Made by a program: the position numbers and the translations under genes. Of a stretch of 64,000 bases of DNA, positions 1 through 63,580 are shown piece by piece. The stretch is from an uncultured Nitrospiraceae bacterium (GTDB lineage: Bacteria; Nitrospirota; Thermodesulfovibrionia; Thermodesulfovibrionales; Dissulfurispiraceae). The notes under the pieces are model-generated. The model was not told the DNA's origin. It made no database searches and saw only the letters and a list, made by a program, of their open reading frames with translations. Every line of letters starts with the position of its first letter. The first letter of the stretch is position 1. Where the stretch lies: contig CAVSHF010000005.1 in assembly GCA_963727805.1 (NCBI GenBank), forward strand, positions 1 through 64,000, given 5' to 3'.

Positions 1-1443
1 GACCCTATGATTAAAAAGTAGAAGACAAGTCCCCCGATCGGATATGTTGTATCTGGAGAGAATCAACAAACCGAAAGAAGGAGGACTTGTCATGAATAAG
101 ATTAGCAAACTTAATTTTAAGGGTCAACAGATTTATGTCGGCATGGATGTTCACAAGAAGAGTTGGAGCGTTAGTATTTTTACGGATGCGTTTGAACATA
201 AGACCTTTACGCAGCCCCCTGAGGTGGACACATTGGTGAATTATCTCAAACGCAATTTTCCTGGTGCGTCATACAAATCGGTCTATGAAGCCGGCTACTG
301 TGGTTTCTGGATTCACGATCGACTGCAAGAACATGGGGTACAGTGTCTTGTAGTCAATCCGGCCGATGTGCCTACAAAGGACAAGGAGCGAACAAAGAAA
401 ACCGACCGAGTGGACTGCCGCAAGCTGGCAAGAAGTCTCCGAAGCGGAGAGATCGAGGGCATATATGTTCCTTCCCGTCCCAAGGTGGAAGACCGTAGCC
501 TTATCAGAACTCGACAAAGTATGGTCAAGAAACAGACGCGCTGTAAGAACCAGATCAAGTCTATATTGCATTTCTACGGAATCCAAATACCGGAAGAACT
601 GGCAAACGGTAACTGGTCCAAGCGCTTCATTACGTGGATTGAAGATATAAGGATGGAACGGGCCAGCGGCAATTTTGCATTGAAAGTTCATTTGGAGGAA
701 CTCAATAACATGCGGAAGCTAATTGCTGATATTACCCGTGGCATCCGTAACCTTGCCAACTCGGATGAGTACCGGCAGAATGTCCGCCTGCTGAAGACCG
801 TGCCGGGGATTAGTACTCTGACCGCCATGATACTACTTACGGAACTGTATGAACTCAGTCGTTTCAAGAATTTCGACAAACTTTGCAGTTACGTCGGACT
901 TATTCCTGATACGGATTCTAGTGGGGAAACGGAACGGAAAACCGGCATAACCAACAGACGGAATGCTCAGCTTCGTGGCATATTGATTGAGAGCTCCTGG
1001 GTGGCGGTACGCAAAGACCCAGCTCTGCTGATGACTTTTCATACACTGTGCAAGAAGATGCCGAAGACCAATGCAATCGTCCGAATTGCCAGGAAACTGT
1101 TAAACAGGATTCGGTACGTCTTAAAGAACCAGCAAGAATATGTATCGGCTGTTGTTCAGTAGAGTGTGATGATAAAGCATGGGAGCATATCTTCAAACTG
1201 ACGTGTACCGTGGGTATCGCATTTTGATTACTACAGCGGCTCAAAAGATGCTGACTGTCCACTCACAGACTACGAACCCACGTCTTCAAATACATGACCA
1301 AGGTAATGCAGCGTCTTCATTAATGAAGGCTGTCTGCTCATAGAAGATTGGGTTTGAGGATGGCACCTGTTATAACGACATTACAGCATACTACGCGGGG
1401 GTAGACACGGGATTAGAAAAGTCTTGCTTTTTTAACATAGAAG
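1..1443 (+). mobile_element. IS110/IS1111-type insertion sequence (left end probably just outside window)
   Basis: DEDD transposase; imperfect sub-terminal IR CTATG(A)TTAAAAA at ~5 and ending ~1440; ~280-nt downstream non-coding region. Confidence 0.75.
92..1162 (+). CDS. IS110 family transposase
   Basis: YVGMDVHK, YEAG, KTDRVD and SYVGLIP...SSG motifs; start after GGAGG RBS. Confidence 0.92.
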   Translation: MNKISKLNFKGQQIYVGMDVHKKSWSVSIFTDAFEHKTFTQPPEVDTLVNYLKRNFPGASYKSVYEAGYCGFWIHDRLQEHGVQCLVVNPADVPTKDKERTKKTDRVDCRKLARSLRSGEIEGIYVPSRPKVEDRSLIRTRQSMVKKQTRCKNQIKSILHFYGIQIPEELANGNWSKRFITWIEDIRMERASGNFALKVHLEELNNMRKLIADITRGIRNLANSDEYRQNVRLLKTVPGISTLTAMILLTELYELSRFKNFDKLCSYVGLIPDTDSSGETERKTGITNRRNAQLRGILIESSWVAVRKDPALLMTFHTLCKKMPKTNAIVRIARKLLNRIRYVLKNQQEYVSAVVQ

Positions 1444-1756
1444 TAATCAAGATACTCCTCGACACGGTGAAGACGCTTTGATTTTATCGGTAATCATCGG
1501 GTTCGATATTCACACCCACTCAAGCAGTGATCATTATTATGAACATCTCAGAAGTGAAGATATTAAATATAATCTGTTCGTCTCGGATAGTGATACGGCG
1601 TAATGTACATCCTGCTGAATCATCAGATGCGATATTGATACCGGCACTTCAGAAGCCTTATCAAGCCTAATTAGACAGCAAGCGGCGCAGAATAGTCTCT
1701 AAATCTTTGCGGAATTGGTCCAGAGCCAAAGGCTTCTGAATATAGTCGCTAGCACC

Positions 1757-2137
1757 TCAGGCCTTTTGGCCAAGAAACTTTTTGAGCTTCTTTATCTCAT
1801 CAGGAGTCATCTTGATCGTGGTCTTCGGCACCTCGCTTGAGACCTCGGCCATGACCTTCCACATCTCTGGTCTGACAAATCCGTAGGTGTCGACGAATGA
1901 CTGCATATCCGAGTTGAGATAAGGGATGAGCTTCCTTATATCTGAAGCCGCCTCTTCCATCCTGTTTAGTAGAGAGAAAGCTGTGCCTCGGGCCAAAAGA
2001 GCCAGACTGAAGTCGGCTTTCAGGTCCATTGCTTTGTTGAAATCAATTATGGCAGCTTCGTTTTTACCAGACATCATGGAAGCCATGCCTCTGATCGATG
2101 TGGAGGGGAAAGCTAATATATTCAGAGATATCGTCAC
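1757..2137 (-). CDS. TPR-repeat protein, probably 5'-truncated
   Basis: AIIDFNKAMDLKADFSLALLARG TPR pattern; no clear start. Confidence 0.5.
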   Translation of the reverse strand: MTISLNILAFPSTSIRGMASMMSGKNEAAIIDFNKAMDLKADFSLALLARGTAFSLLNRMEEAASDIRKLIPYLNSDMQSFVDTYGFVRPEMWKVMAEVSSEVPKTTIKMTPDEIKKLKKFLGQKA

Positions 2138-2169
2138 CGAGGGAAGAACAGGGTATTAGTGATTAAAGT

Positions 2170-2591
2170 ATGAACTCTAGCTTGAAAATAACCTCGTTTG
2201 TTTTTATATTTGTAATTCTGCTTTTTTCTTATGCCTATGCTGAAAATAAAGTTTCAGAAGGCTACGATGAAAATACCGAGGTCACCATAAAGGGAACGAT
2301 CAAGGATATTGACCGTGGAATGAGAGGCCCAGTGATTGTTTACTGCAGGCTGGCAACAAGAACTATCAGGTCATAACGGCGCCGCCACGGTATATCGCCC
2401 AAGAAGGCATTGAACTCAGACCTGGAAGTTCGTATGCAGTGACCGGCTCAAAATTTATCTCCCGTGACGGCAATCCCTATATCATCGCAAGCCGCCTAAA
2501 AGACTTGTCTACCGGGGAGATAACGCAACTCAGGGATTCATCCTGCATGCCTCTGTGGAAGGGAATACGAATGAGTAGAAGCATGAATTAA
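2170..2591 (+). pseudogene. Frameshifted exported OB-fold-like protein
   Basis: Signal peptide then YDENTEVTIKGTI; continues in another frame after ~2340 (NYQVITAPP...VTGSK...LRD...PLW) to a stop at 2591. Confidence 0.6.
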
Positions 2592-2644
2592 TAATATTAA
2601 ATAGCATTAGTTCGATTGCCTATGCATAGCCGCGCTCAGTTGCT

Positions 2645-2863
2645 TTATGATAGCTTTGACAATACCTCTTTAATCATTGCAATATTTTCTTTAAGTTGCC
2701 CTAACCTTTCCTCATCCTTTCTTACCTCGCGGCCGCCAATATGCGCCGAAGTATATATGAAGTTGAAGTTTATCGTTTCCTCTAGATCTTCGAATTCGGT
2801 CTGCAAACGTGCTAGCAATGTCTTAAGTGCAGCGGCGTCAACTGAATTGCAGTCCATCGGCAT
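2645..2863 (-). CDS. Small hypothetical coiled-coil protein
   Basis: 72-aa ORF with AAGGA RBS. Confidence 0.55.
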   Translation of the reverse strand: MPMDCNSVDAAALKTLLARLQTEFEDLEETINFNFIYTSAHIGGREVRKDEERLGQLKENIAMIKEVLSKLS

Positions 2864-8759: not shown

Positions 8760-8850
8760 TCAGGAGCATCAACGGGCAACGAACGATTCCTTGGAATCCC
8801 ATTTTTAAGCAAGGTATCAGATTTCTTGTACAGGTAAAGGTTATTTTCAC

Positions 8851-8896
8851 AAATCACCAAATTCCCGGTACTGATAAAATCGATGATAGTCAGTCG
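8851..8896 (-). repeat. Type-B dispersed site (inverted copy)
   Basis: AAATCACCAAATTCCCGGTACTGATAAAATCGATGA is reverse-complement-like to the 10148/17952/63481 copies. Confidence 0.75.
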
Positions 8897-8959
8897 CACC
8901 AATTGTTTCTGGAGAAGAGCGCCGGTATGGACTTCGCGACGAAAGCTTGTGTAACGAGC

Positions 8960-9078
8960 CGTATCCCTGTGGTAACGATAACGACATGTACCCTCACTCG
9001 TCAAATTATCGGCAGTGAGGGAGAGTACGAACGGTAATCATCGCACCGCAAGAAATTTGAAAATAGCGACTTGTCGGT
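8960..9078 (+). repeat. ~120-bp non-coding repeat (inverted copy at ~58370-58490)
   Basis: Shares ACGACATG..TCGTCAAATTATCGGC.GTGAGGGAG.GTACGAA.GGTAATCATC..ACCGCAAGAAATTTGAAAAT. Confidence 0.75.
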
Positions 9079-10147: not shown

Positions 10148-10241
10148 CTACTGAAAGTCATTGATTTTACCGGTACCAGTAATTTGGTGATTACCCAGAT
10201 AACCTATCATCACCGGTTTGTCGAGTGTCTCCTTGTAACAC
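10148..10241 (+). repeat. Type-B dispersed site, interrupted by IS21
   Basis: CTACTGAAAGTCATTGATTTTACCGGTACCAGTAATTTGGTGATT; colinear with the 63481 copy for ~100 bp. Confidence 0.8.
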
Positions 10242-10456
10242 TGCGTATTTCGGAGCATCGCGACCAGTCATTTCGGTCCATCGCGACCACCTGTTTCGGA
10301 GTATCGCGACCACCCATTTCGGACTGAGCGCGACCACTTTTGGTCGTAGTCCGAAACGAGAGGTCATATAGGAGCTGACGAGAGCGTCGTCTTAGTTGGA
10401 TATAGCAGGGGGTTATAAGTCATTGTTTCTTCTTGACCATTCATCAAGGAGGCACA

Positions 10457-12001
10457 ATGTCCACCCCGACCATAACCATGCAAAAGACGAGAGAGATATT
10501 AAGACTACACTTCGACCTGAAGCTACCCAAGCGGCAGATTGCCCGCTGTGTGAAGGTTTCGCACAGCACCGTCGTAAAGTATCTTGAGAAGGCGGAACAG
10601 GCGGCGATCACCTGGCCGCTGCCCTCTGATCTCGACGACACCGGACTTGAGCAATTGCTGTTCGGCAAGGAATCTGTTGCCCGGGATACAGTCCGGCCAC
10701 TTCCGGCAATGGATGAACTCCACAGGGAACTGAGGAAGAAGGGCGTAACGCTCTATCTCCTATGGCAGGAGTACAAAGAGAAGTACCCCGACGGGTATCA
10801 ATATACTCAGTTCTGCGAGCATTATCGGCGCTGGGCCGAGACCGTTGAAGTCAGCATGCGACAGGTTCATCGTGCAGGCGAAAAGCTCTTCCTGGACTTC
10901 GCGGGCAAAACCATCCCCATCATCAATCCCCTGACGACGGAAGTTTACGAAGCCCAGATCTTCGTCTCAGTACTTGGTGCCAGCAACTATACTTATGCCG
11001 AAGCGGTGCTGCGTCAAGACATCCCGTCCTGGATCAGCTGCAATATAAACGCCCTGGAGTTTATAGGTGGGGTCCCTATGATTATGGTGCCTGACAATCT
11101 CAAGGCTGCAGTGACTAGGGCCTGTCGATACGAGCCGGAACTGAACGCCACATACCAAGAGTTCTCCGCCCATTATGGCACAGTCATCATCCCTGCCAGA
11201 GCAGCAAAGCCAAAGGACAAAGCCAAGGGCGAATCAGCCGTGCTCGTTGTTACTCGATGGATACTTGCGGCCCTTAGAAACCGAACCTTCTTCAGCCTGC
11301 GCGAGTTGAATGAAGCAATCCGAGAGCTCCTTGAGCGACTCAACAATCGTCCCTTCAAAAAGCTGCCCGGATGCAGACGCGAGATGTTTGAGGCGATCGA
11401 CAAGCCGGCATTGAGACCGCTTCCACTGGAACGATACCAATATGCCCAGTGGAAGAAAGCCACCGTCAACATCGACCATCACATCGAGGTCGAAGGTCAC
11501 TGCTATAGCGTTCCTTATCAACTTGTTAGAAAGCAGGTTGACGTCAGGATGACTATGAATACAGTAGAGATTCTATTCAAATCCAGGCGAGTAGCCCTGC
11601 ATCAAAGAAGCTTCCAGAAGGGAGGCTTCACGACGATCGCAGAGCATAGACCCAAGTCCCATCAGCGTTATCTTGAGTGGTCGCCATCGAGGATCATCCA
11701 TTGGGCTGCAAGTACAGTAGGCCCGCATACTGCAGAACTGCTTGAACAGATCATGCTCGCCAGGCCGCATCCCGAACAGGGATACCGCTCATGCCTCGGA
11801 ATCATGAGACTTGGCAAACGATACTCTGCCGAGCGGCTTGAGGCCGCAGCTCAAAGGGCACTCCTTATCAGGTCGTTCTCATACAGAAGCGTTAACTCAA
11901 TCCTTGAGCATGGCATTGACCAGCTACCGATAACCGAAGACAAGGAGGTGACAGCTATCGTCTATCACGACAACATCAGGGGCAGCGATTACTACAACTG
12001 A
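10457..12001 (+). CDS. istA: IS21 transposase
   Basis: HRAGEKLFLDFAG, VPDNLK, KPKDKAKGE. Confidence 0.93.
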   Translation: MSTPTITMQKTREILRLHFDLKLPKRQIARCVKVSHSTVVKYLEKAEQAAITWPLPSDLDDTGLEQLLFGKESVARDTVRPLPAMDELHRELRKKGVTLYLLWQEYKEKYPDGYQYTQFCEHYRRWAETVEVSMRQVHRAGEKLFLDFAGKTIPIINPLTTEVYEAQIFVSVLGASNYTYAEAVLRQDIPSWISCNINALEFIGGVPMIMVPDNLKAAVTRACRYEPELNATYQEFSAHYGTVIIPARAAKPKDKAKGESAVLVVTRWILAALRNRTFFSLRELNEAIRELLERLNNRPFKKLPGCRREMFEAIDKPALRPLPLERYQYAQWKKATVNIDHHIEVEGHCYSVPYQLVRKQVDVRMTMNTVEILFKSRRVALHQRSFQKGGFTTIAEHRPKSHQRYLEWSPSRIIHWAASTVGPHTAELLEQIMLARPHPEQGYRSCLGIMRLGKRYSAERLEAAAQRALLIRSFSYRSVNSILEHGIDQLPITEDKEVTAIVYHDNIRGSDYYN

Positions 12002-12018
12002 ACAACACAAGGAGGTTT

Positions 12019-12771
12019 ATGAACAACCAGACAGTAGAGAAGCTCTACCATATGAAGTTGAGCGGAATGGTTACGGGCTTCAATGAGCAACGTGAGCAGC
12101 CCTCCATGACGGAGCTGTCCTTTGATGACCGCTTCGCCATGATCGTAGAAAGAGAGTGGCTGTACCGGGAAAACAGAAAACTCGCCATAAGGCTCAAGGC
12201 GGCGAAACTAAAAAGGCAAGCGACTATTGAGGACGTTGACTACAGGCACTCAAGGGGTCTCGACAAGTCTCTTATTCTCTCTTTGGCAAACTGCGAGTGG
12301 ATCAAGAACCACCACAACGTTATCATCACGGGGCCTACGGGCATTGGCAAGAGCTACCTCGCTGAAGCATTTGCACAAAAAGCCTGCCGTGAAGGAATGA
12401 CGGCAATCTACTACCGCTATCCACGGCTCTTCAGGGAGCTCGCAATAGCGAGAGGAGACGGCAGTTACCTGAAACTCTTGAACAAGATAGCCAAGACAGA
12501 GCTTCTCGTTATCGACGATTGGGGCTTATCTTCAATGAATGAGGCAGAGAGAAGGGACTTCCTGGAAGTCATAGAGGATCGGCACGGACTCAGATCAACG
12601 CTAATAACGAGCCAGTATCCTGTTTCAAAGTGGTTTGAGTTGATCGGAGAACCGACGCTGGCCGATGCCATACTCGATAGGATCATTCACGCTGCGCACA
12701 AGATCACGCTGAAGGGAGAGTCGATGCGGAAAAAGAAGCAAAACTTGACGCATCGCGACCACTCCGAGTAA
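12019..12771 (+). CDS. istB: IS21 helper ATPase
   Basis: GPTGIGKS, LLVIDDWG, ADAILDRI. Confidence 0.95.
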   Translation: MNNQTVEKLYHMKLSGMVTGFNEQREQPSMTELSFDDRFAMIVEREWLYRENRKLAIRLKAAKLKRQATIEDVDYRHSRGLDKSLILSLANCEWIKNHHNVIITGPTGIGKSYLAEAFAQKACREGMTAIYYRYPRLFRELAIARGDGSYLKLLNKIAKTELLVIDDWGLSSMNEAERRDFLEVIEDRHGLRSTLITSQYPVSKWFELIGEPTLADAILDRIIHAAHKITLKGESMRKKKQNLTHRDHSE

Positions 12772-13155
12772 TATGACTAACCCCAGTGCGACGACGTTCT
12801 CGCAGTGGTCGCCATCGACCGAAACAGCTGGTCGCCATCACCGAAATCCGCACACCTTGATCTGTATCGCTGAGCAATAAGGTGTACTCAAAGTACTGGT
12901 GGTTTCGATAAGTCGCAACTCCATGAAGAGTAGCCACAAAGTCGCATTTCTGCATGGAGAGTTCTGGTATCACTTGCATAGAAAACTATCGAAAGCTCGT
13001 TCTCGACTGCAACCTCTATCTAGGGCAATTAGCGTTTTTCAAATGTCACTAAGATCGCCGCTGGATAGAAAAGTGAAAAAAGCAATGGATGGTAAGCGAC
13101 AATTGGTCACATCGAGCAGGGACAGGCATTCACCCACGTCCCTGCTCGATGCACA

Positions 13156-48645: not shown

Positions 48646-49995
48646 TCAGCGCTTCCACTCGTCGTGTGCGGCTTTGATCGCACCCGGAAAGGCGACAACG
48701 TCCGACGGAAACACCTCGATAAACAGACTGTTTGCGCTCCGCCCCGCCCCCCCTTGCGGATACATGCCCCGGCGGAGCATCTTGAGGAAGGACTGCTCGT
48801 CGCACGGGATTGGGTTCTGCAACTTCTCCAAGAATCCCTTGCCTCGCCCACCGCAGGCTGCGCCCTTGCCGTTCTTGCCGAGCCACATGTTGGTCTGCCA
48901 GGCGACCCCCACGTTGTTGGCGCGCGCCAAGGCGACAGTTCGCTGGTCCGCAGGCTCATCAGCAATCAGGAAGCAATCCTGCACCACGAAGTGCCCCGGG
49001 AGAGCCTTCGCGGCCGTGCGAACCAACTCGTCGAGCAGTTGGTCATTGATCCCCAGCGCCTGAAGCCGCGGCCTCGGTCGCCCGTCTTCGCCAATGGGCG
49101 GGAACGCGAACTGGACGATAATGGGGAGAACGACCGCCGTGCTGGGGAAGTACCGTTCGAACGACGCGGCGATCCCCGCCATCGCGCGGACCACGAGCGA
49201 TGGTCGATACCCGGCCTCTTGCCACACGCGCGGCTGGTCGTTGACGCACTGGCTTCTGGCTTCCGCGGGGGTCGCACCAGGCAGTCCGAGTTCCTCCGTG
49301 AGGGTTTGGATGCCCGTGAGCTTGATGAAGACGACGTCGCGGTCATAGCCCGTCTCCCGCAGGTGAGCGGCCAGCTGCTCCAGCATGCCAGCGAATGCCA
49401 CCTGGTAGCCGGCATCCCAAGGTGGAGGCATCGAAATCCTCTGGCAGGGTTCGTTGCCACCATGGTAGTTCACGGCGAAATCGAGGCGCCGGAGGGCAAG
49501 GCCGTGCGGAGGCTTCTCGAACAGCCACTCCGGATTGCCTTTGCCTGCTATGACTGAGAGCTCTACCGCCAGATGGTGTGACCGCGCGAGCGCGAGCTGG
49601 CGGTCCATCGCCGTGAAGTCGTAGGTCTTTCGCGTCGGCGAAATCTCTGCCCAAGTGAAGTGCACACCGATCCCATCGACCCCCGGGACGGCGAGAGCTT
49701 TGTCGAAGTCGCCGTTCTGGATCATCCATTTGGTGGGCCACACGAAGATACCGCGGGCGGAGTCATTCCTGGGGTTCGGGTTCAAGCTTGCCCGGCATGC
49801 GGCCGAGAGTTCTGAAGAGTGTTGCTTGAGGCACGCGATGATTCGCCCCCCACCGGGCTGGACATCCTTGCATAGGGCTTGCGCTTCGGCCTGGCACGGC
49901 CAAGGCTCCGGAGTCGCGGCCCACGCTTGCGAGGCGCAAATGATAATCCCGACCATGATCGTAGAGATCGACAGTTCGATTCTTTTCATCGCCAC
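48646..49995 (-). CDS. Secreted glycoside-hydrolase-like protein with Cys-rich repeat
   Basis: C......LC..VQPGGGRI..CLK...ELS..C repeat; W.EI.P....YDF..MD and P.W TIM-barrel-like motifs; GC-rich. Confidence 0.65.
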   Translation of the reverse strand: MAMKRIELSISTIMVGIIICASQAWAATPEPWPCQAEAQALCKDVQPGGGRIIACLKQHSSELSAACRASLNPNPRNDSARGIFVWPTKWMIQNGDFDKALAVPGVDGIGVHFTWAEISPTRKTYDFTAMDRQLALARSHHLAVELSVIAGKGNPEWLFEKPPHGLALRRLDFAVNYHGGNEPCQRISMPPPWDAGYQVAFAGMLEQLAAHLRETGYDRDVVFIKLTGIQTLTEELGLPGATPAEARSQCVNDQPRVWQEAGYRPSLVVRAMAGIAASFERYFPSTAVVLPIIVQFAFPPIGEDGRPRPRLQALGINDQLLDELVRTAAKALPGHFVVQDCFLIADEPADQRTVALARANNVGVAWQTNMWLGKNGKGAACGGRGKGFLEKLQNPIPCDEQSFLKMLRRGMYPQGGAGRSANSLFIEVFPSDVVAFPGAIKAAHDEWKR

Positions 49996-50195
49996 TCCAT
50001 CGGAACTTGCAAGAACGTGTTTGCTACGCGAGTCGTCCGTAGGCCCGCTTTGGGTCGAAAGCAGCCGCTCTACTCATCGGGGCACCGAACATTATTTTTT
50101 ATGTCGCATGCGTCTTTTTGTTCATTATATCTTGCATGCCTTGTCCCGTCCTATTCCTGAAGTGATAACGCAAAAAGCCATGGGGCGCGGCAGTG

Positions 50196-50393
50196 TTATT
50201 CCTCGTCCCTCTTGCGCGTGTTAGGCGGAGATATTCCCCTTTTTTTCATTTCTTTAGTAACCGTTGCCGGAATGGGACGGCACCCGCAGTATTTTGCATG
50301 TTCACGGTGCCATTCAAGCCTTTGTTCCATTGTGGCTTTGGCAGGCATCCGGTTCTCGAGATGCCAATCTCTATTTAACTTTGACTCTTTCAT
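50196..50393 (-). CDS. Small hypothetical protein
   Basis: LN.DWH..N.MP..AT.EQR..WH.EHA..CGCRPIP. Confidence 0.65.
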   Translation of the reverse strand: MKESKLNRDWHLENRMPAKATMEQRLEWHREHAKYCGCRPIPATVTKEMKKRGISPPNTRKRDEE

Positions 50394-50492
50394 GATTAAG
50401 GGTGGATCAACCTTCAATGCACGTTATTCCATTTGGAATTATGCCATAAGAATAATTCTAAATGGAATGATCCCTAAGCAGAGTCTCGACTC

Positions 50493-50552
50493 CTACTTAA
50501 AATCATCATCGTGAGGACACTGCTCATTATGCAAGATTTCTTCCAGAAATCT
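50493..50552 (+). repeat. Type-A site interrupted at +58..60 by IS1111
   Basis: CTACTTAAAATC-N30-GATTTCTTCCAGAAATCT; resumes AGACTGAAGCTCTTC at 52145. Confidence 0.85.
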
Positions 50553-52144
50553 GATATGTATTAAACCTGTCAAGTGCTGATGATCAGCGTCTTTGTTTTT
50601 TTGTTATAACCTCCTTTTTGGATCATACATTTGGGTCAGGACAGCAGCGATAAACGACGGTAGATCACTCTGATATGCGCGGGTTGGATACCGCATGACT
50701 TGTCTTCGTCGTGGAGCTGCCTGTGTCTAGAGTCGAGGGTCAGCCTTTAAGAAGGCGCCTCTTAGATTTCCCGAGGGTTCTCCCAACCGGCTGCTATCCT
50801 GGCCAAAATGCACACCCGTCGAATCAATGTCCACAGTTGTCTAAGTTTAGAAGAACACATTTATGATTACGAAGCCACTAGGGGCAACAACTTTCTTCTA
50901 CTGTGCATGTTTGCATGTTATGCAACTTTCACCGCAGCACTATTGTTCTTTCCCATAACCTCGCGACCAATAGCCCAAATAAACCCTGCCAACTCCCTTG
51001 CCACTGCAGTGCATGCCTGCACCTTTAGTTTTCCCTTTTGTGTCAGATGCCAGTATCGGCCGCACAAACGTTTTTGCGCTTTCCACGCAATTGCCTGTAC
51101 CGCCTCACTTGCCTTTTCGGCCCTCCGTTGAAGATGAGCTGTTTTCCTAGCAGCAAAACGATAGCTCCAAGAAGCCTCTACAAGTAACCTGCGAACATGT
51201 CCATTGCCTGTTTTGGTAATGCCTCCTCTTTTTTGACGATTACCGCTTGAATCCTCGCTCGGTACTAATCCAAGATAAGCCATTAATTGTCGAGGACTTT
51301 CAAAACGGTTTATATCTCCAATCTCTGATACAATCGTCATCGCCGTTACAAGCTTAACTCCCCGTAATGCCATCAATGCTTCCACCACAGCTCCCAACGA
51401 CCATCCCGCAAGCGCTTTGATCATCTGTTCTTCCAGCGATACCACGCGTCCCTGAAGGTGTTTAACTGCATCTATATACTCTTGAAAGACGATCTGCTGG
51501 ATAGGACTTTCAAAGCTGATCTTTTCAAGCCAGCGGAAATGTGCTTGTGTCCATTTATTTTCGCCGGAGTAGATTCTTTTATTTCGCAACAAAAAGCCGT
51601 TCAATCGTTGCCGGGCACGCCGTTCCATGCTCTTCATATCTTCACGAATTCGTGTGAGGTCTCTAATCGCCTCTTGTTGCTGATCAGGAACCCACACCGC
51701 TGTCAGTTCATTTGCTCTAAGTAAACGCACCAGTGTCACAGCATCGCGCCGATCTGTCTTCACTCGATCTCCGGCTTTCTTCGGTATTAATGAAGGGGCT
51801 ATAACATCGCATCGATGCCCCATGTCCGTTATTTGCCGATATACTCCGTATCCGCACGGTCCAGCCTCATAACAAAAAACAGCCCGACTTCCAGATGGCA
51901 CTACCTTTTTTACCAGCTTCGTTATAGCCTCGGCTGTATTGGCAATCTCCCCATAGTATCGGGGCACTCCATGCTTCCCTGCCGTTGCTACTGCTATCTT
52001 TTCCATGTGTACGTCCATGCCGATAAATGTGCTAAAATTCTTCATAACCTGTCCTCCTTAATTGTGGCTCTGAGCCTTTGGTTTCGTTACCTTAAAGCTT
52101 AACCCACGTCCTTTAAGGTTGGACAGGTTTAATACATTATGTCT
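50553..52144 (-). mobile_element. IS1111-type IS110 element
   Basis: 16-bp sub-terminal IR ATGTATTAAACCTGTC located 7 and 3 nt from the ends; TCT core; long downstream non-coding region. Confidence 0.9.
50918..52045 (-). CDS. IS110 family transposase
   Basis: IGMDVH, YEAGPCG, KTDRRDA, YLGLVPSEDSSG. Confidence 0.95.
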   Translation of the reverse strand: MKNFSTFIGMDVHMEKIAVATAGKHGVPRYYGEIANTAEAITKLVKKVVPSGSRAVFCYEAGPCGYGVYRQITDMGHRCDVIAPSLIPKKAGDRVKTDRRDAVTLVRLLRANELTAVWVPDQQQEAIRDLTRIREDMKSMERRARQRLNGFLLRNKRIYSGENKWTQAHFRWLEKISFESPIQQIVFQEYIDAVKHLQGRVVSLEEQMIKALAGWSLGAVVEALMALRGVKLVTAMTIVSEIGDINRFESPRQLMAYLGLVPSEDSSGNRQKRGGITKTGNGHVRRLLVEASWSYRFAARKTAHLQRRAEKASEAVQAIAWKAQKRLCGRYWHLTQKGKLKVQACTAVARELAGFIWAIGREVMGKNNSAAVKVA

Positions 52145-54500: not shown

Positions 54501-54560
54501 CTACTTATAATCGCGAATCTGCCCACCACGTCACAGATGCTTTATTACAACCGGAAGTCC
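54501..54560 (+). repeat. Type-A dispersed site
   Basis: CTACTTATAATC-N30-TATTACAACCGGAAGTC. Confidence 0.75.
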
Positions 54561-54639
54561 TCAGTGATTCAGTTCTCGGAGAGGCAAGGGCAGTGTTGCC
54601 TATCCAATTCAGTGCGGCGCCACATACGGGTTAGCTGGT

Positions 54640-55374: not shown

Positions 55375-55444
55375 CTACTTATAACTACTTAAAGTCATCG
55401 CCGCAGCGATACGGTTCAAGGCTCAAGATTTCTTCCCGTAATCA
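55375..55444 (+). repeat. Type-A site with duplicated start (CTACTTATAA-CTACTTAAAGTC)
   Basis: Box 2 GATTTCTTCCCGTAATC at +43 from 55385. Confidence 0.85.
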
Positions 55445-55547
55445 AGAGGTATGCCTTTCCCAGTGAGAATGCGGTATACACCGACTCCCATTTAGAGGAC
55501 ACATGTCAAGTAACAAAACATCTGCGTTCGAAGTTTTTTTGACTTCT

Positions 55548-57003
55548 CTCATTGTTATGAGCTCCGATGATCATTACCATTGCCGTTTTTTCTTTGAGAT
55601 TCGGCTCCAGTATTAACTGTGCCAGACTCCCATCAGGATCAAAGCCACACCCAGAGATCACTCCCCGAAGAGGGCCCCTTCCGCTTCATAGCGGTCCAGA
55701 AAACCTTCGGATCCGTGCCGGGTCCATTTCGAATTTGCTATTCTTATGGTTTTGATTCACCAGTCCTATAGGGCTCCCGGCCCAGCCAGTAAGGATACCG
55801 GTAACTCTTATGTTGCTGGGTGAGACAGTGTTCCAATCTAACCGTTGGTTTAGTTCCAGTCGGTGTACAGGTTAGCTGCTTCACCCAGTTCTTCATGCAA
55901 ATGCTTTATCAGTCATAAACGGAACTCCATCCCTCATAATGTAATACGCCGCCCTCGCCAGTTTATGTGACAGTGCACTGTGCGCAATCGGTGCGTTTGT
56001 CCTCCTCAGCTTCCGGTCATAATAAGCCCTTGCTTCAGAGTCAAAGCGCCGTGATAGCTCTCCTGCCTCGGCAAATGCCCAGGACAGATACTTGTTGCCG
56101 TTCTTCCTGTTATTTGTCCCTTTCTTTTTGTCATTGCTGAATCTAGCGGCGGGGACCTTCCGGCAGTACGACACATAGTTGCCAACATCTGCAAAGCGAT
56201 CAATAGGACCCGTCTCCATCATAATCGTCAACGCCAGGACCCTTCCAACTCCCGGCATAGTTAAAAGAAGATTATATGGCCGCTTGAGATCTATCTTTTT
56301 TTCTACGGCCACTTCTATTGCTGTGATCTGCCTTCTCAGTGAGTCAATCGCATCTTTACTTACCTTACCGACAAGGGATAGATCATCGTCACCTGCCAAT
56401 AGTGGTGTCACCCGATCCTTCTTCAATGCCTTTATATCATTTGTCTTCATCTTTGCACCTATGTTCCTGGCAACGATGTTTTGAAGGCTCAAGATGAGTG
56501 ATGTCCTCAACCTCACCAGATGCCCGCGCTTCCTCAGAAGATCTCTCAGAGGTCTTTGCTCCTTTGGATAAATGAATCCCTCAGGCAGTATCTTTAGTCT
56601 CAGCATCTCGGCAAGCCAGAACGCATCATCTTCGTCATCTCCATGCTTGAGTCCACAATACTGCTGCACTCTGGAGGGATTCGCCAAGTGGACCCGATAG
56701 CCTTCCCCCATCAGAAGATCTACCAACCAGTACCAATTGTATGTCGATTCCACAACAATCCCTTCAACATCCTTCTTCAACGGTCTGAGCGTCTCTAAAA
56801 TCAGACTCGGATCGTTCCGGAGTTTCTTCTTCCATAGCCTTCGCCCATCCTCATCGATGATCCCCACATATGAATTGTTTGAATGAAGATCAAAACCTGT
56901 GTACAGTCTCATACAGCACCTGCTTAAGGTTAAGATTGTTTCTCTTACCTCAAGCATACCGCTAACCGATATGCTCGGGGAGGTCCCCTCTATATGATTA
57001 TCT
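55548..57003 (-). mobile_element. IS110/IS1111-type element (downstream boundary tentative)
   Basis: Transposase plus ~345-nt downstream non-coding region; removal at TCT gives GACTTCTACTCTACAC. Confidence 0.65.
55893..56912 (-). CDS. IS110 family transposase
   Basis: GFDLHS, VVESTYNWYW, K..D..DA, SYCR.VP...S. Confidence 0.92.
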   Translation of the reverse strand: MRLYTGFDLHSNNSYVGIIDEDGRRLWKKKLRNDPSLILETLRPLKKDVEGIVVESTYNWYWLVDLLMGEGYRVHLANPSRVQQYCGLKHGDDEDDAFWLAEMLRLKILPEGFIYPKEQRPLRDLLRKRGHLVRLRTSLILSLQNIVARNIGAKMKTNDIKALKKDRVTPLLAGDDDLSLVGKVSKDAIDSLRRQITAIEVAVEKKIDLKRPYNLLLTMPGVGRVLALTIMMETGPIDRFADVGNYVSYCRKVPAARFSNDKKKGTNNRKNGNKYLSWAFAEAGELSRRFDSEARAYYDRKLRRTNAPIAHSALSHKLARAAYYIMRDGVPFMTDKAFA

Positions 57004-57253
57004 ACTCTACACTGCGGATATTTTGCCACAGTAACAGTTACCGTTTGTAACCCTCGCACCAAGACCACAATTCAAAATGCGGTGTTCATGTCGTAAATCT
57101 CACCGAAGTAGATCAGCAGAGCCAGGTTAACGCCCCCACTTCAAGCAGTCAATAAGCACAATAAACCTGTGATTGCTAACGGTAGTAGGACATTTCCTCG
57201 GGGTCACCGTGGGAATGTTTCACTGTCAATCGCCATTTCTGCTACTATCTACT

Positions 57254-58162
57254 ATGTCACATGCAAACAGTTCCTTAAGAGCGATTATCTATGCCTTGGC
57301 GGCAAATTTAGGAATTGCGGCGGCGAAAGGGCTTGCCGCATGGTATACGGGGTCAAGTGCCATGCTCGCGGAAGCCATTCATTCAGCAGCTGACTCTGCC
57401 AATGAGATTCTCTTGCTGCTTGGCCTCAGAGAGGCGCGGCGGCCGGTCTCCGATGAGCATCCACTGGGGCATGGAAAGGCGATCTATTTCTGGTCAGTCA
57501 TTGTCGCGATCATGCTTTTTAGCATGGGCGGTATCTTCGCAGTGTCCGAAGGCCTGCACAAGCTGCACTATCCAAAGATGCCTCAGTCGCCGTGGGTCGC
57601 GATGGTGGTGCTGGTTGTTTCGATGCTGCTGGAGATCAGTTCTCTGCGTGGGGCCCTTGCAGAGGTTAGGAAGGTACAGGGCAAGCTTTCTTTAACAAAA
57701 TGGTTCAGGGTGAGCAGGCAAAGCGAGCTTATTGTTGTGGTTGGCGAAGACATTGCGGCTCTCGTGGGACTCTCCCTTGCTATGGTAGCTGTTCTCACGA
57801 CGATTTTGACAGCAAACCCACTCTTTGACGCGCTGGGCACTATCGCGATCGGTCTGGTCCTCGTGCTTGTCGCCGTTGCCGTCGGCATAGAAGTGAAGAG
57901 TCTACTGATCGGTGAGAGTGCAGACCCGGAAATGAAGGCCTCTCTACTGGATTTCCTTTCAGGTCGGCCGGAGGTCGACCATGTCTACAATCTCATTACT
58001 CTCCAACTTGGCAGCGAACTCATGATCGCAGTTAAGGTGAGAATGCATGAAGACGCAAGTGCCGCCAGACTGATTGCAGATATCAACAACGTTGAGGCTG
58101 CAATAAAGGAGAGATTTCCCATGGTGCGCTGGATTTTTTTTGAACCTGATGTAACCGATTAG
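57254..58162 (+). CDS. Cation diffusion facilitator transporter
   Basis: AEAIHSAAD, HPLGHGK, EDIAA, FFEPD. Confidence 0.9.
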   Translation: MSHANSSLRAIIYALAANLGIAAAKGLAAWYTGSSAMLAEAIHSAADSANEILLLLGLREARRPVSDEHPLGHGKAIYFWSVIVAIMLFSMGGIFAVSEGLHKLHYPKMPQSPWVAMVVLVVSMLLEISSLRGALAEVRKVQGKLSLTKWFRVSRQSELIVVVGEDIAALVGLSLAMVAVLTTILTANPLFDALGTIAIGLVLVLVAVAVGIEVKSLLIGESADPEMKASLLDFLSGRPEVDHVYNLITLQLGSELMIAVKVRMHEDASAARLIADINNVEAAIKERFPMVRWIFFEPDVTD

Positions 58163-58369
58163 GCCTGCTCAATATCCTAAACTCTCCCCCGGTGAGGCCG
58201 TAATAGTGTCTTGCCTCATGAAGTATGCTTGTGCATATCTTCTTATGCAATTTCTCTTCTTGCCGCCCCCCCACTGCCCGCGAAGATGAACCCAAATGTC
58301 GAACCGCAAACTTGATAAGTAGTAGACGAAGTCTTGCGGGATTAAACCTCGCTGAGACCTGTAGCTTTC

Positions 58370-59582: not shown

Positions 59583-59870
59583 TATTTAGCAAGTTGATGC
59601 ATGGATTACAAATGCAGTGGAAATTAACCACTTAGAATTGAAGTTCAACGCCTACCAACGTGGAGTTATAATCTCCTCGCAATCAAGAGCGGCACCCTTT
59701 TCTGGAAAATGTGGGCTCCACCGACGAGTCTTGAATTTTACTTTCACCAGGCAGAATGATTTTCAGTTGTACTGTAGCTCACCGACAGAAAATTGACGTT
59801 ACGTATAGCATGTCGAAATCATCGATAGTAAATAATCGCCCACCATAGAGACTTCTACTCCTACACATCA

Positions 59871-61292
59871 AATATGGTATAACCAGAGTATGGACGGTTG
59901 TTAACCGTTCATAAGGGGCAGGAGGACGTGGTTTCCTACAGGGTCAAGAATCCTTTAATAAGTCAGTCCCCTGTCTCCCAAAGCCATGATAAATTGATAG
60001 GGCTACGAGCTCTTGTAAAGATGGAGATATGGTTGGGAGGCATTCCTGCCTAAGGTCCTATGCGGGAGGTGGTTGGAAATGAGCAAAGCATTCGTTGGCA
60101 TCGATGTGTCAAAAGAGCACTCGACTGCCCAAAGCATCGACAGTGACGAAAAGAAGCTTTTTTATTTAAGGTTCTCAATGGACTCAGCGGGGTTCGCAGA
60201 GCTTCGGACTGCTATTAAAGGATGCGGGGTGAACCCGGAGGATATTGTAGTGGCGATGGAGTCCACCGGCTGTTATCATATCAATCTCTTTTCCTTTCTA
60301 TGTGCGGAGGGACTTCGTTGTGCGGTAGTAAATCCGCTTCTGATATCCAAATTTGTTCAGGGATCATTGAGAAAGACCAAGACAGATAAGAAGGATGCGA
60401 TGACCATAGCGCAGTTTCTTCTGAACAATGAGAAGAAGCTGTGCGTGGTAACGTCATCCCAAGATGCGCAGGATCTGAGGGATCTGGCCAGGGAACGAGA
60501 GTCTCAGTCATGGATGATTGCATCACTTAAGAATGACCTCAAACGGCTGCTGCAGAGCACCTTCCCCGAGCTTGAGACACTCCGCAAGAATATTTACACT
60601 GAGACGATGCTGAACTTTGTTCGACAGTATCCATCGGCCAGATTAATCCGGGAGGCAAAGAGGAAAGATATCGACAAAGCACTCATCTGCCCCGGGGAGA
60701 AGCGCAAAAGAGTCCAGATTAGCGCCGACGATCTTATTGAGGCGGCAAAGCGTTCGGTGGGCTCAGCTGCTACAGCGAAGGAGCTTATCGTCTCTGAGAA
60801 GGCAACCACGATCCTGTATCTTCAGGAAAAGTGTGAGAAGATTACCGAGGCATTGGTGGATGCGTGTGAGGCAACACGGATCGAAGATCTTGAGATAATG
60901 AAGACGCTCGACGGGGTGAAAAACATCCTTGGCAGCAGCTTTCTAGCGGAGATGGGAGAGTTGTCCAACTTTAAATCATATAAGAGCTTGATAGCATACA
61001 TGGGGTTCGATCCATCGACTCATCAATCGGGGAAGCATGTGGGGCCAAGCAAAATATCCAAACGAGGGAATCGTCATATGAGGCGCATCACCCATATAAT
61101 GACACTCGGTTCAATAAAATCTGACAATATATTCAGAGAATATTATCTCAGAAGGATAGCCGAAGGATTGCCTAAGATGAAGGCATTAATGGCGACTTCT
61201 CACAAGCTAATAAGAGTGATCTTCTCTATGCTTACACATAGGATGCCGTTTAAAAAGGAGGTGGCTGCTGTATAGTTGACTTATTATCAACA
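59871..61292 (+). mobile_element. IS110-group element inserted at a CA core in a type-A site (site starts at 59855)
   Basis: Removal restores CTACTCCTACACAT-CA-CCGCAGGGATATTGCT, matching the IS1380-free site at 38750. Confidence 0.85.
60079..61275 (+). CDS. IS110 family transposase
   Basis: VGIDVSK, MESTG, KTDKKDA, YMGFDP..HQSG. Confidence 0.93.
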   Translation: MSKAFVGIDVSKEHSTAQSIDSDEKKLFYLRFSMDSAGFAELRTAIKGCGVNPEDIVVAMESTGCYHINLFSFLCAEGLRCAVVNPLLISKFVQGSLRKTKTDKKDAMTIAQFLLNNEKKLCVVTSSQDAQDLRDLARERESQSWMIASLKNDLKRLLQSTFPELETLRKNIYTETMLNFVRQYPSARLIREAKRKDIDKALICPGEKRKRVQISADDLIEAAKRSVGSAATAKELIVSEKATTILYLQEKCEKITEALVDACEATRIEDLEIMKTLDGVKNILGSSFLAEMGELSNFKSYKSLIAYMGFDPSTHQSGKHVGPSKISKRGNRHMRRITHIMTLGSIKSDNIFREYYLRRIAEGLPKMKALMATSHKLIRVIFSMLTHRMPFKKEVAAV

Positions 61293-61444
61293 CCGCAGGG
61301 ATATTGCTTATTAATCAAGGTTTCTTTCGATAATCAAGACAATTACTGTCTGCGTTATTGGATTGATTTCGGGATTTTATGGTATGTGTAACCGATATCC
61401 CGAAATCGGAAAAGCTTCTTGAGATAAGATTCAGCTCCTCACGC

Positions 61445-61774
61445 TTATCGACTTACTTTGGCGGCAACAAGACGATTCAAGCTTACTCCAGTTTCAGCAG
61501 ATTCGATAGCAAGCAATCTGTGTGTTTCGGGTGTAACGCGAACCACAAATTTTCCACTGTAGTGCCGATTTGCGATCGGTTCTGGAATAGGCTCTCCAGT
61601 CTGTTTCATATCATTAACCGCCTCGGCGACAACTTTGCGGATGCCTTTCAGGGCAGCTTCGGGCGTTTCTGCTAACCAACTTAAGCTTGGAAATTCGGCA
61701 CAAAGTCCGACATACTCCTCGTCGTCTGTCGACCAAGTCACCCTATATGTATAATGATCATTCTTCAATTCCAT
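61445..61774 (-). CDS. hicB: HicB family antitoxin
   Basis: EFPSLSW.A.TPE.AL, YSGKF.VR.....H..L. Confidence 0.88.
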   Translation of the reverse strand: MELKNDHYTYRVTWSTDDEEYVGLCAEFPSLSWLAETPEAALKGIRKVVAEAVNDMKQTGEPIPEPIANRHYSGKFVVRVTPETHRLLAIESAETGVSLNRLVAAKVSR

Positions 61775-62018
61775 AATTCACCTCCAAGATCTCAATGGCT
61801 TTAATCACCTGTTTTACCTGATAGCTCTTAGCTTTCCCTTTAGCATTTTGAATGTTTATCCGCGGATCTCCCTGCCAAGGCGTTCTATATATTCTATGAC
61901 TGCTTCCTTTTTGCCTAGCAGCGCCAAAGTAGTGGTCACAGACGGTGCATAAGTCAGCGAATCTGACATTGCCAGGATTATTCTTCATCTGTGAAACCAT
62001 TTCAGCAATGTTTGGCAT
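61758..62018 (-). CDS. hicA: HicA family toxin
   Basis: NP.NVRF.DL, GSSH, AK.YQVKQV; overlaps hicB. Confidence 0.85.
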   Translation of the reverse strand: MPNIAEMVSQMKNNPGNVRFADLCTVCDHYFGAARQKGSSHRIYRTPWQGDPRINIQNAKGKAKSYQVKQVIKAIEILEVNYGIEE

Positions 62019-62187
62019 GGTTTAATTATAGTATCAATAATAGTACTATGTCAATGGCTGTCAATATAAATATCAACATTGCACTTGAAAATCTAAGGTA
62101 TGACGAATCAGCATGATAATCCGACGGCCATTTATTTATTGCGGACGGGCGGATGGATAAACAATGGATGTGCCCAGTTCTCAGTAA

Positions 62188-62246
62188 CTACTTAAAATCA
62201 ATACCTGAGGGCTTCCTGAATGTACTTGTGAGTACGTGGAAATCAT
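62188..62246 (+). repeat. Type-A dispersed site (divergent)
   Basis: CTACTTAAAATC...GAGTACGTGGAAATC. Confidence 0.6.
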
Positions 62247-62314
62247 CGGCGGTTCAGTTCGCCCCGAGGCGTGGCAATTTTACACCGATCCACGAAGCGC
62301 TTCGTTATGGAGCC

Positions 62315-62614
62315 TTATTCTTTCTCATCCTCTGGATACCAAGTAAACCCTGGCTCAACTTTTCCGTTTAACCCGTCAAAACTCTTCAGTTCGACAATAT
62401 CTTCAACATAAAACAGCGGCGGATCGTCTTCTTTATTATGAAGTTGGGTGTTAATGTCCTCTCTTCTTCTTATAGTCTCTATCGCCTTTAATGCGGCGTC
62501 ATCAGGATTAGTCGCCTCAACCTGACATGATGTATAGAAACCATGTCTGGCATTCCCATTGCCAAGGTTTATGATGAAGTTATGACCATTTATCAATACG
62601 CGATATTTATTCAT
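62315..62614 (-). CDS. Hypothetical cassette-like protein flanked by attC-like sites
   Basis: GGCGTG..TTT.AC.CCGATCC cores at ~62267 and ~62641, each ending GTTATG. Confidence 0.65.
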   Translation of the reverse strand: MNKYRVLINGHNFIINLGNGNARHGFYTSCQVEATNPDDAALKAIETIRRREDINTQLHNKEDDPPLFYVEDIVELKSFDGLNGKVEPGFTWYPEDEKE

Positions 62615-62749
62615 ATTGTTAGGCATAAAGCTCAACGGGAGGCGTGTGAAGTTTCACGCCGATCCCGCGCAGCGCCTTGTTATGTTTCATTTCTTTTAAT
62701 CGTACACGTCCCTTTGTCATCTTTCTGAGACTATAACACAAAATTACTT

Positions 62750-63580
62750 CTACTTATAATCTCCAATGCGGGGAAACTGCTCATTTTGTAAGGGTCGAGT
62801 AGGCCGGTGGAATCGCACCACCAGCCCCTCACAGATTCCGTACGTGAACCTCTCGATTCATACGGCTCGTGTCAATCATCAAGTTGAGTCTTTGCAGTCT
62901 CAACCATACACATTGAGCGATAGTTCCTCCTGGTCACCCAGTTGACTGGTACTCTTTGTGGATTGACCCATCCCCTTCCCTCCACGGCTTATTATCACCG
63001 CTTCATCGGTACTATTGGACGGTCCGACCCCTTCACCTGCATCGATACTTTCCCCCTTCGTTTGCACTTATAGGGTTTTCTCTTAGCATCAGATGAAGAG
63101 TTCCCGCGTTCCACACAGGAGCCTAGATCAGCTTCATGCCGCCTCTATGCCGGACGCCGTTCAGGCAGTAAACAGGTATCTCCTGAACTAATCCTGATGC
63201 AAAGTAAGAACATCAGTTTTGACGTCGTCCTTTTCCTTTCGACACCTCATCAGCGGTTCGCTTACGCTCATCTCTCTGATCCATCCCTGACACGATCTAG
63301 TCGTGCCTTTTCCTTTAACGCTCACCACCGGAGCCTTTCGACTACAGCAGCTTAAGGTGGGTTGAAGCCTGCTCCTGCAAGCCGGCTTCGAGGGGCCAAC
63401 CCTCATCTTCCTGTGCAGCCTCGTGGCGCACTTACGACCGGAAATCGAGACCAGCGCTTGTCGGTAGAGAATGTTATAGCCACCTGAAAGTCATCTATTT
63501 TACCAGTACCAGAAATTTGGTGATTTCCCGAACAAACTACCATGACCGCTTAGTTGAGTGCTTCCTAGTTACACGCTGAG
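62750..63580 (+). repeat. Type-A site interrupted after +44 by an ORF-less intron, followed by a type-B site at 63481
   Basis: CTACTTATAATC...GG|intron|TTACGACCGGAAATC; CACCTGAAAGTCATCTATTTTACCAGTACC. Confidence 0.8.
62794..63431 (-). ncRNA. ORF-less group II intron, copy 2 (638 nt)
   Basis: Appears identical to 34789-35426. Confidence 0.9.

Follow-up and report, generated by a model that had tools for sequence, protein, structure and literature searches.

Unrelated mobile elements recur at fixed points of a module-separating repeat in an uncultured Nitrospiraceae bacterium

The first 64 kb of contig C5 (CAVSHF010000005.1) of an uncultured Nitrospiraceae bacterium, whose 3.9 Mb genome is assembled in five contigs, constitute the stretch of DNA analysed here and referred to as the window. 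Along this stretch an array of gene modules is separated by copies of a repeat of about 65 nt, and mobile DNA accounts for 21,270 bp (33%) of it. Our analysis revealed that at least five unrelated kinds of mobile element recur at fixed points of this module-separating repeat. An earlier note on the same DNA had proposed that several unrelated element families inserted into one repeat family, and the core of that observation proved stronger than first claimed.

As deduced from the alignment of its copies, the type A form of the repeat consists of box 1 (CTACTTAWARTC), an interior whose length is fixed at 32 nt and which comes in several unrelated sequence types, and box 2 (TTAYNNYCNGNAATC). Many type A copies run on into a linker with a third box (..GGAAATC..) and then into a type B module, which starts with C[TA][AC]CTGAAAGTCATCGATTTTACCAGTACCAGGAATTTGGTGATTACC... 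and is conserved to about +135. The box 1 12-mer CTACTTAAAATC, with up to two mismatches, gave 21 matches against 6.2 expected, a number reached by none of 100 shuffles, and 20 of these 21 matches lie on the plus strand. Searches with nhmmer detected 49-52 type A and 30 type B copies genome-wide; 16 type A matches lie on one strand between 19.6 and 62.8 kb of the window, and smaller co-oriented clusters occur at C3:775-797 kb, C5:564-567 kb and C3:28-29 kb. Exact matches to the box 1 pattern numbered 21 in this genome (control pattern, 6) compared with at most four in each of 40 relatives, and the family is essentially restricted to this genome and one close relative. The sites of the window other than those split within by the elements described further below are the following (G003, a member of the same genus, and G005 are genomes used for comparison; IS91c is an IS91 composite introduced below).

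8841-8979, minus strand: composite of a type A (8926-8979) and a type B (8841-8896) site, found by nhmmer
10148-10241, plus strand: type B site interrupted by IS21 at +94; the rebuilt site scores 58 bits
17952-18007, plus strand: type B site
19646-19707, plus strand: type A site, found by nhmmer
26448-26508, plus strand: type A site, found by nhmmer and flank statistics
27233-27284, minus strand: inverted type B site 3' of a recombinase gene, kept alongside the recombinase in G003
28946-29008, plus strand: type A site; homology to the recombinase unit of G003 stops at box 1
30548-30700, plus strand: type A site (30548-30611) and type-B-like module (box 1 at 30641); homology to the methyltransferase unit of G003 begins at 30641
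37868-37929, plus strand: type A site, found by nhmmer
44022-44084 and 44551-44610, plus strand: two type A sites, found by nhmmer
47165-47228, plus strand: type A site, found by nhmmer
50493-50552, plus strand: type A site (53 bits) with an IS1111-like element directly after it
54501-54562 and 55385-55447, plus strand: two type A sites flanking a 216-aa open reading frame (ORF), found by nhmmer
57041-57100, plus strand: degenerate type A site that is empty here, with IS91c inserted in its counterparts at C3:887341 and G003:C2:1411181
62188-62261, plus strand: type A site with divergent interior; homology to G005 stops at box 1
63481-63574, plus strand: type B site after the linker of site 62750

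The elements of the window that recur at the repeat belong to the IS110 and IS1111 groups of insertion sequences (IS), to the group II introns and to a composite of the IS91 family.

59855-61340, plus strand: type A site split after CTACT by IS110c (59860-61281; transposase 60073-61275; guide-like patches at about 59930-59965)
34745-35443, plus-strand site, minus-strand intron: an ORF-less group II intron (34789-35426; Rfam RF01999/RF00029) interrupts a type A site after +44
62750-63574, plus-strand site, minus-strand intron: a second ORF-less intron (62794-63431) interrupts a type A site after +44
45111-46945, minus strand: group II intron with a reverse transcriptase (RT)/maturase ORF (45197-46435); its 5' end adjoins the box-2-like TTATCTTGGCAAATC (P ~0.012)
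50553-52144, minus strand: IS1111-like element (transposase ORF 50918-52045); it has subterminal inverted repeats, and a long non-coding end follows the transposase gene
23892-26447, minus strand: IS91c, a composite of IS91 transposase and tyrosine recombinase (Pfam, NCBIfam), with eight copies about 100% identical

The earlier note had proposed that all copies of each element be mapped and compared with the background. Random 220-nt genome windows were scored against three repeat models at a threshold of 12 bits, which was reached by 142 out of 19,996 (0.7%). The rebuilt targets attained at least 12 bits in six of eight IS110c copies (binomial P 4e-12), 6/11 ORF-less introns (P 6e-11), all three IS1111-like copies (P 4e-7) and 2/8 copies of IS91c (P 1e-3). 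When the background was multiplied by eight to an intergenic-like level, IS110c, the ORF-less intron and the IS1111-like element stayed below 2e-4, whereas IS91c did not. Enrichment was thus found for these three elements; IS1380, IS21 and IS1182, in contrast, mostly or always lie elsewhere.

All eight genomic copies of IS110c (88-99% identical) have CTACT on their left and TATTATC, TATAATC, GAAAGTC or GAAAACC on their right, and the rebuilt 5+7 nt constitute box 1 in every case (position weight matrix, PWM, each P <= 2e-5). The junction lies between CTACT and T/G, i.e. at +5/+6 of an ordinary box 1. The 11-nt sequence CCTACACATCA is carried by each of the eight copies and hence represents the left end of the element and no part of the site; the former placement of this IS110 at a CA core at +15/16 of site 59855 was wrong, having counted the element end as repeat. 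Specialist copies located off the array were found on three contigs, e.g. at C3:794983, C3:879420, C3:1099932, C5:399200 and C3:2245956. Two specialists share one site at C3:2245956-2248043 and at C5:399200-401300, where IS110c occupies box 1 and an ORF-less intron lies at box 2.

The left ends of the eight aligned IS110c copies differ mainly in two patches, which were analysed using the guide definitions of PMC11208160 and the order of strand matches given in PMC11187229. Patch 1 reads ..TTTCCTAC, ..TTAACTAC, ..TTTGCTAC or ..CTTTCTAC (..CTAC) and shares 4-7 identical nt with the left flank. In 8/8 copies the reverse complement of patch 2 agrees with the right flank across 8 nt with 0-1 mismatch, AATAAGT or ACTAAGT accompanying ACTTATT.. 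targets, TATCAGT accompanying ACTTATA.. and TTTCAGT accompanying ACTGAAA... A short hairpin lies between the two patches; folding as a whole did not reach significance (z = -1.5). The patches ..CTAC and ..AGT fit an AC or a CT core equally.

The IS1111-like element occurs in the repeat in all three of its copies. The window copy and a split copy on C3 share a junction between AAATCT and AGAC just beyond box 2, and the window element directly follows the TCT at +58..60 of site 50493, exactly where the earlier note had placed it. A diverged copy at C5:121909 (84% identical) has its junction between CT and ACTTAAAG, at the start of box 1. The element has a downstream end of 365 nt and 12-bp subterminal inverted repeats (ATGTATTAAACC/GGTTTAATACAT), while IS110c carries 213 nt of non-coding sequence upstream of its transposase gene and about 6 nt downstream; DEDD transposase domains and a non-coding end placed by type (upstream in IS110, downstream in IS1111) agree with membership in the two groups. 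In the downstream end, the copies at the end of box 2 carry GAAATCT and TCTAGA, matching their own flanks, and the copy at the box 1 start carries TGACT.. and AAGTAGA instead, matching its own. IS110c begins with the match to the bottom strand, the IS1111-like element with the complement of the top strand. The same order of strand matches is published for the IS110 and IS1111 families (PMC11187229; guide definitions from PMC11208160). As judged from these sequence matches, the IS110/IS1111 elements would be guided by their own non-coding (bridge/seek) RNA, with patches that vary with the target subtype.

The window holds further IS110-family elements.

1-1271, plus strand: IS110a, truncated by the contig start (transposase ORF 44-1162; Pfam DEDD_Tnp_IS110 and Transposase_20)
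1270-1447, plus strand: pieces of two more IS110-family elements, of which 1342-1447 is the right end of IS110d (BLAST to C3:1101732-1105174 and C5:438082-441526)
1443-1495, plus strand: type A site truncated within box 1 (..TAATC onwards), with box 2 at 1481-1495 (box 2 PWM at offset 33, P ~5e-5)
55548-57003, minus strand: IS110b, a single full copy (ORF 55893-57068; DEDD_Tnp_IS110 and Transposase_20)

The right end of IS110a lies at 1271, since a 100% identical copy (C4:2895-1625) stops at the equivalent base. The earlier note had tentatively placed the end of this first IS110 before TAATCAAGA, which did not hold: the DNA adjoining TAATCAAGA (1342-1447) is a right-end remnant of IS110d and not of IS110a. 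The nested elements next to IS110a encode transposases of 418 aa and, in IS110d, 448 aa, as identified by Pfam on the full copies C3:1101732-1105174 and C5:438082-441526. All three right ends of IS110d adjoin a type A site cut inside box 1, with box 2 exactly at offset 33, and the insertion point of IS110d is the 3' part of box 1. IS110a apparently inserts into or beside the nested IS110-family elements and not into the repeat. Breaks of the assembly fall at these repeats, C5 starting within IS110a and C3 within a type A site.

The ORF-less introns had been placed after +44 of sites 34745 and 62750, which was borne out, as their joined flanks restore full sites. Out of 13 intron 5' ends genome-wide, nine adjoin box 2 at offset 0 (P < 0.001), and the ORF-bearing intron of the window contributes a tenth junction (P ~0.012). 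Accordingly, the complement of box 2 (GATTTCCNGAAAGTAA) forms the end of the 5' exon in 9-10 of the 13 copies. The introns match RF01999 (110-123 bits) and RF00029, and the 412-aa ORF contains RVT_1 and GIIM only, without an endonuclease domain, which makes them candidate members of subclass IIC. A stem-loop upstream of the insertion, as characterizes group IIC introns, was not detected, the sites showing no significant fold. The 5' exon, i.e. the box 2 complement ending in ..GTAA, is likely the pairing partner for homing.

The transposase of IS91c carries PF04986 and PF14319 and scores 473 bits against NF033538 (cut-off 125), a Y2 HUH enzyme with an N-terminal zinc domain. Its recombinase-side (right) end directly adjoins box 1 of site 26448. 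The earlier note had recognized this adjacency with a gap of 2 bp; the element ends at 26447 and the gap is 0 bp, as established by a paralogue at 57041, which is empty, and by a filled orthologue in G003, where the IS91c end stands exactly at the position that is empty at 57041-57100 of the window. Among the right flanks, 6/8 have a box-1-like start (P <= 0.047) plus box 2 at +43/44 (P <= 0.0054); most targets are degenerate members of the repeat family, given that only 2/8 reach 12 bits with the whole-site hidden Markov model (HMM). Members of the IS91 family insert beside a tetranucleotide of the GTTC/CTTG type, and the far-end flanks of IS91c end in GTT, CTT, GTA, ATT or GTG without a clean tetranucleotide. 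Some members of this family carry a second ORF of the phage-integrase type, to which the tyrosine recombinase upstream of the Y2 transposase in IS91c corresponds; unlike those members, IS91c sets its recombinase-side end exactly against box 1 in 6/8 copies. No published description of a site preference of an IS91 and recombinase composite was found in titles and abstract openings, a search that left subscription journals mostly uncovered. The placement of IS91c may be brought about by its recombinase or by a sequence preference.

Other elements of the window did not show such a preference, and two of them interrupt the repeat.

10242-12852, plus strand: IS21 (istA/istB; Pfam), 1/3 copies in the repeat
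38750-40463, plus strand: scarred type A site split by IS1380 (38760-40405), with CTAC duplicated
32772-34479, plus strand: IS1182-like element (Pfam), 0/7 copies in the repeat, serving as negative control
41878-43584, minus strand: second IS1182-like copy
31703-32771, minus strand: IS200/IS605-like element with approximate boundaries (Y1 transposase 32290-32652), inserted after TTAC

IS1380 and IS21 each have one of three copies in the repeat, namely the window copy, and two at unrelated sites; IS1380, IS21 and IS1182 are not specialists and hit the repeat no more than by chance. The position of IS21 given earlier, about +93 into type B site 10148, agrees with its start at 10242 (+94). The position of IS1380 at +7..10 of site 38750 was likewise correct, as seen from the CTAC duplication, and a specialisation of this element is contradicted by its copies elsewhere. 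The IS200/IS605-like element, present in three identical copies, starts where the homology to the methyltransferase unit of G003 stops (31702/31703) and abuts IS1182.

The presence of these non-specialists, including two IS1182 copies, an IS630, the IS200/IS605-like element, IS1380 and IS21, in a window that is one-third mobile might suggest a regional effect, in which a dispensable foreign island of 20-65 kb tolerates insertions and elements come to lie near repeats by chance. The specialists, in contrast, strike the same nucleotide of the repeat in off-array copies on three contigs, their guide patches match the flanks, and random windows rarely resemble the repeat, as the background shows. 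The genome-wide maps have largely refuted this explanation, which we regard as highly improbable.

Site 38750 had been taken as a box 1 variant, which it is not: in it, CTACT is followed by the outermost 11 nt of the left end of IS110c and then by the site from about position 17 onwards (38750-38759, 40406-40463). This looks like the scar of an imprecise loss of IS110c via ATCA microhomology, with IS1380 entering later. The flanks of IS110b, GACTTCT on one side and ACTCTACAC on the other, read as the earlier note had quoted them and are box-1-like, of the same scarred kind (also 57004-57040). Bases resembling the IS110c end in these two targets could indicate that the repeat itself is debris of elements (solo ends, scars or sequence carried by IS91), in which case element and repeat would be associated by shared origin and not by targeting. 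IS91-family elements can mobilise adjacent DNA, and homology blocks often start at box 1 and extend rightwards to a variable degree, as such debris might. Most sites are, on the other hand, uninterrupted with no element close by, nhmmer located no repeat site within any element, the flanks of near-identical element copies are widely different, and IS91c has an orthologous empty site; a derivation of the repeat from debris is very unlikely.

Several observations weigh against specialised targeting and temper its extent. The IS110c copies C3:794983 and C3:802324 have an identical left flank and may be dependent. Patch 1 exceeds the invariant CTAC by at least 2 nt in only 5/8 IS110c copies, and the usual CT core is not established, as the junction triplet shared by the copies is ACT. 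The ungapped box 2 PWM does not recognise three of the 13 intron junctions, two of these being one base shorter. Part of the signal rests on box-level motifs in degenerate sites, considering that the whole-site HMM recovers 2/8 IS91c and 6/11 ORF-less intron targets. With these points taken into account, we hold it highly probable that this lineage-specific repeat is a preferred landing site of several unrelated mobile lineages, each with its own fixed point and mechanism.

As the junctions show, IS110c enters box 1 between CTA(CT) and T/G and IS110d the 3' part of box 1; the IS1111-like element inserts between AAATCT and AGAC past box 2 and its diverged relative at the start of box 1. With respect to mechanism, recognition in the IS110/IS1111 elements would be provided by their own non-coding RNA, one patch of which matches the left flank and the other the right flank in its complement. 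Insertion of the compact group II introns is on the opposite strand next to box 2, and they would home by pairing with this box in the 5' exon. IS91c brings its recombinase-side end exactly against box 1, possibly using the recombinase or a sequence preference. Such insertions presumably cost little, because the repeat is multi-copy, conserved and situated between genes of a dispensable, foreign-looking module array.

The nature of the repeat was addressed through the units that it separates. After removal of mobile DNA these span 0.2-4.2 kb with a GC content of 38.5-57.8%, and their genes, lying on both strands, encode an ankyrin protein, a methyltransferase, an MPG glycosylase, a hydrolase, a cation efflux protein and a signal peptidase, together with HicB, FRP-like, DMP19-like, lipocalin-like and YtkA-like proteins. 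The 32 nt that precede box 1 assort independently of the 32-nt interior (r = 0.04 for 1081 pairs); sites 34745 and C5:566703, for example, share 94% identity to the left and 28% to the right. Edges of homology coincide with box 1 at 28946 (G003), 62188 (G005) and 30641 (G003 and C5:450606) and in the pairs 26448/28946 and 65433/C3:790714. Five units have counterparts of 89-95% identity at unrelated places in G003 or G005, compared with about 73-80% for core genes, which points to recent horizontal exchange of single units:

27201-28958: tyrosine recombinase and FRP-like unit
30641-31702: methyltransferase unit
38017-38712: MPG glycosylase unit
57041-58328: cation efflux unit
61425-62200: HicB unit

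Orthologous empty sites for isolated copies were not obtained, the genus members being about 65-80% identical with little synteny. The unit at 48306-50493 has a GC content of 57.8% against 38.5-55% in its neighbours and long overlapping ORFs on both strands, with no Pfam or NCBIfam match. A c-di-GMP-I riboswitch (20157-20238, plus strand; 48 bits, gathering threshold 35) precedes an ORF for a HAMP-GGDEF diguanylate cyclase (20607-21959, plus strand), so that a sensor of cyclic di-GMP would stand before a synthase of the same molecule.

One of the exchanged units encodes a tyrosine recombinase that could act on the repeat.

27486-28460, minus strand: tyrosine recombinase of 324 aa, single-copy and Xer-like, below all curated cut-offs including that of the integron integrase

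The gene is located between an inverted type B and a type A site, a layout shared by G003, and homologues of the recombinase were found in 9/41 genomes, this genome (G000) being counted. The repeat probably joins the units of a cassette-like array, with recombination taking place at box 1, a reading that is plausible but unproven. A more explicit version would be a gene-cassette system without integron integrase, in which box 1 is a double-strand crossover core, boxes of the AAATC type are accessory binding sites, an Xer-like recombinase (the 324-aa protein or that of IS91c) exchanges the units, and IS110/IS1111 elements, introns and IS91c are parasites like their attC relatives; this version is possible, and we consider it doubtful. 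Genes in both orientations speak against a cassette system, as do the edge of the MPG unit and the left edge of 61420-62200, which lie 38-80 nt from box 1. Any repeat family is, in part, also expected to show homology that sets in where a repeat begins. Moreover, the recombinase loci of other genera (G024, G028, G007 and G023) gave no match to the repeat HMM, and at those of G024, G028 and G007 no repeat family was found either, on contigs that are short.

An ordinary chromosomal integron, or a cluster of attC sites lacking integron-integrases (CALIN), would make the observed insertions another instance of IS1111-attC elements and group IIC-attC introns. Same-strand repeats spaced by mostly single-gene units of mixed GC, and diverse unit contents including a HicB antitoxin, recall such arrays, genes on both strands notwithstanding. 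The whole-genome search with TIGR02249 (integron integrase) yielded at best 86.5 bits against a cut-off of 265, and the two tyrosine recombinases of the window remain below all curated cut-offs. The core sites of attC are the inverse motifs RYYYAAC/GTTRRRY, and none were seen on reading the alignments; box 1 and box 2 are direct and not inverse repeats, ending in AAATC. Folding of 39 repeat copies gave mean z values of -0.1 to +0.3 relative to shuffles, on both strands and with RNA and DNA parameters. An attC identity was rejected on these grounds, and an ordinary integron is extremely improbable. What survives of the attC analogy drawn in the earlier note is the behaviour of the elements, while the repeat itself fails the attC and integron definitions that were tested. 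The same classes of element, IS1111-attC and group IIC-attC introns, are described in PMC3001079 as specialising on attC in cassette arrays. Similarly, an IS1111-type IS and compact introns here specialise on the junction repeats of a module array, the introns lying opposite to the site strand. Unlike the attC case, IntI, the attC hairpin and R/L boxes are absent here, and the 5' exon of the introns is the conserved box 2 sequence instead of a stem-loop.

Two further identities were discarded. A terminator or structured RNA is not indicated, with Rfam reporting only the introns and one riboswitch and shuffle z values of about 0; alifold produced no consensus fold in a weak run with one empty alignment row. 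A protein-coding repeat was rejected as well: the minus-strand strings (..GDDFK* in type A, ..GNHQIPGTGKIDDFQ in type B) show no third-position excess and no long ORFs, and the frame is not kept between A and B. On the minus strand of type B, the string ..CYKEAID.A.MIVFFGNHQIPGTGKIDDFQ recurs in most of 26 copies (e.g. 10148-10241 and 63481-63574), perhaps by chance or as the remnant of a gene end.

The repeat might alternatively be an intergenic element kept by the host, regulatory or similar to repetitive extragenic palindromic (REP) sequences and bacterial interspersed mosaic elements (BIME), its cassette-like appearance arising from recombination between copies. The boxes are conserved and their spacing is fixed, and Y1 transposase genes are present in the genome, within IS200-like multi-copy units. 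REPs are established hot spots for the IS110 family (PMC1525189). Families of the REP/BIME kind comprise hundreds of dispersed intergenic copies with a cognate RAYT transposase; the approximately 52 type A and 30 type B copies here are clustered. A palindrome or stable fold, as expected of REP/BIME hairpins, was absent, the approximately 80 copies in total are strongly clustered and co-oriented regardless of gene direction, and the family hardly extends beyond this genome and one relative close to it (21 copies here, at most four in each of 40 relatives); we consider such an element unlikely. The REP comparison also bears on the argument that an abundant target should be functional. Specialised targeting stood up to our analysis; function of the repeat does not follow from it, since a conserved multi-copy sequence suffices as a target, as it does with REPs.

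Among the closest known systems are the IS110-family elements that target REPs (IS621, ISPa11 and ISPpu9/ISPpu10), as described by Tobes and Pareja 2006 (PMC1525189) and in PMC11208160 and PMC11187229. As in the accounts given there, a multi-copy intergenic repeat of the host is struck by IS110/IS1111 elements at one fixed position and orientation, a non-coding RNA, here a candidate, contains two short matches to the target, and relatives have undergone natural retargeting. Unlike REPs, the repeat described here is non-palindromic, unfolded and arranged in same-strand arrays instead of being dispersed, and at least four IS110/IS1111 lineages use four points of it, in addition to introns and an IS91 composite. 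The case is set apart by the unfolded array-forming repeat, the number of independent lineages and points, the retargeting of guides from one repeat subtype to another, an intron target of the sequence type and a site-specific IS91 composite.

Hence, the array provides a natural case in which several RNA-guided IS110/IS1111 lineages appear to have retargeted their guides on one repeat, and it would inform the evolution of bridge- and seek-RNA specificity. Compact group II introns would home here to a conserved sequence rather than a hairpin, and a composite of IS91 and a recombinase is placed in a site-specific manner. An unfolded, array-forming repeat with box 1 as module junction may furthermore represent a testable candidate for an integrase-independent, Xer-like cassette system.

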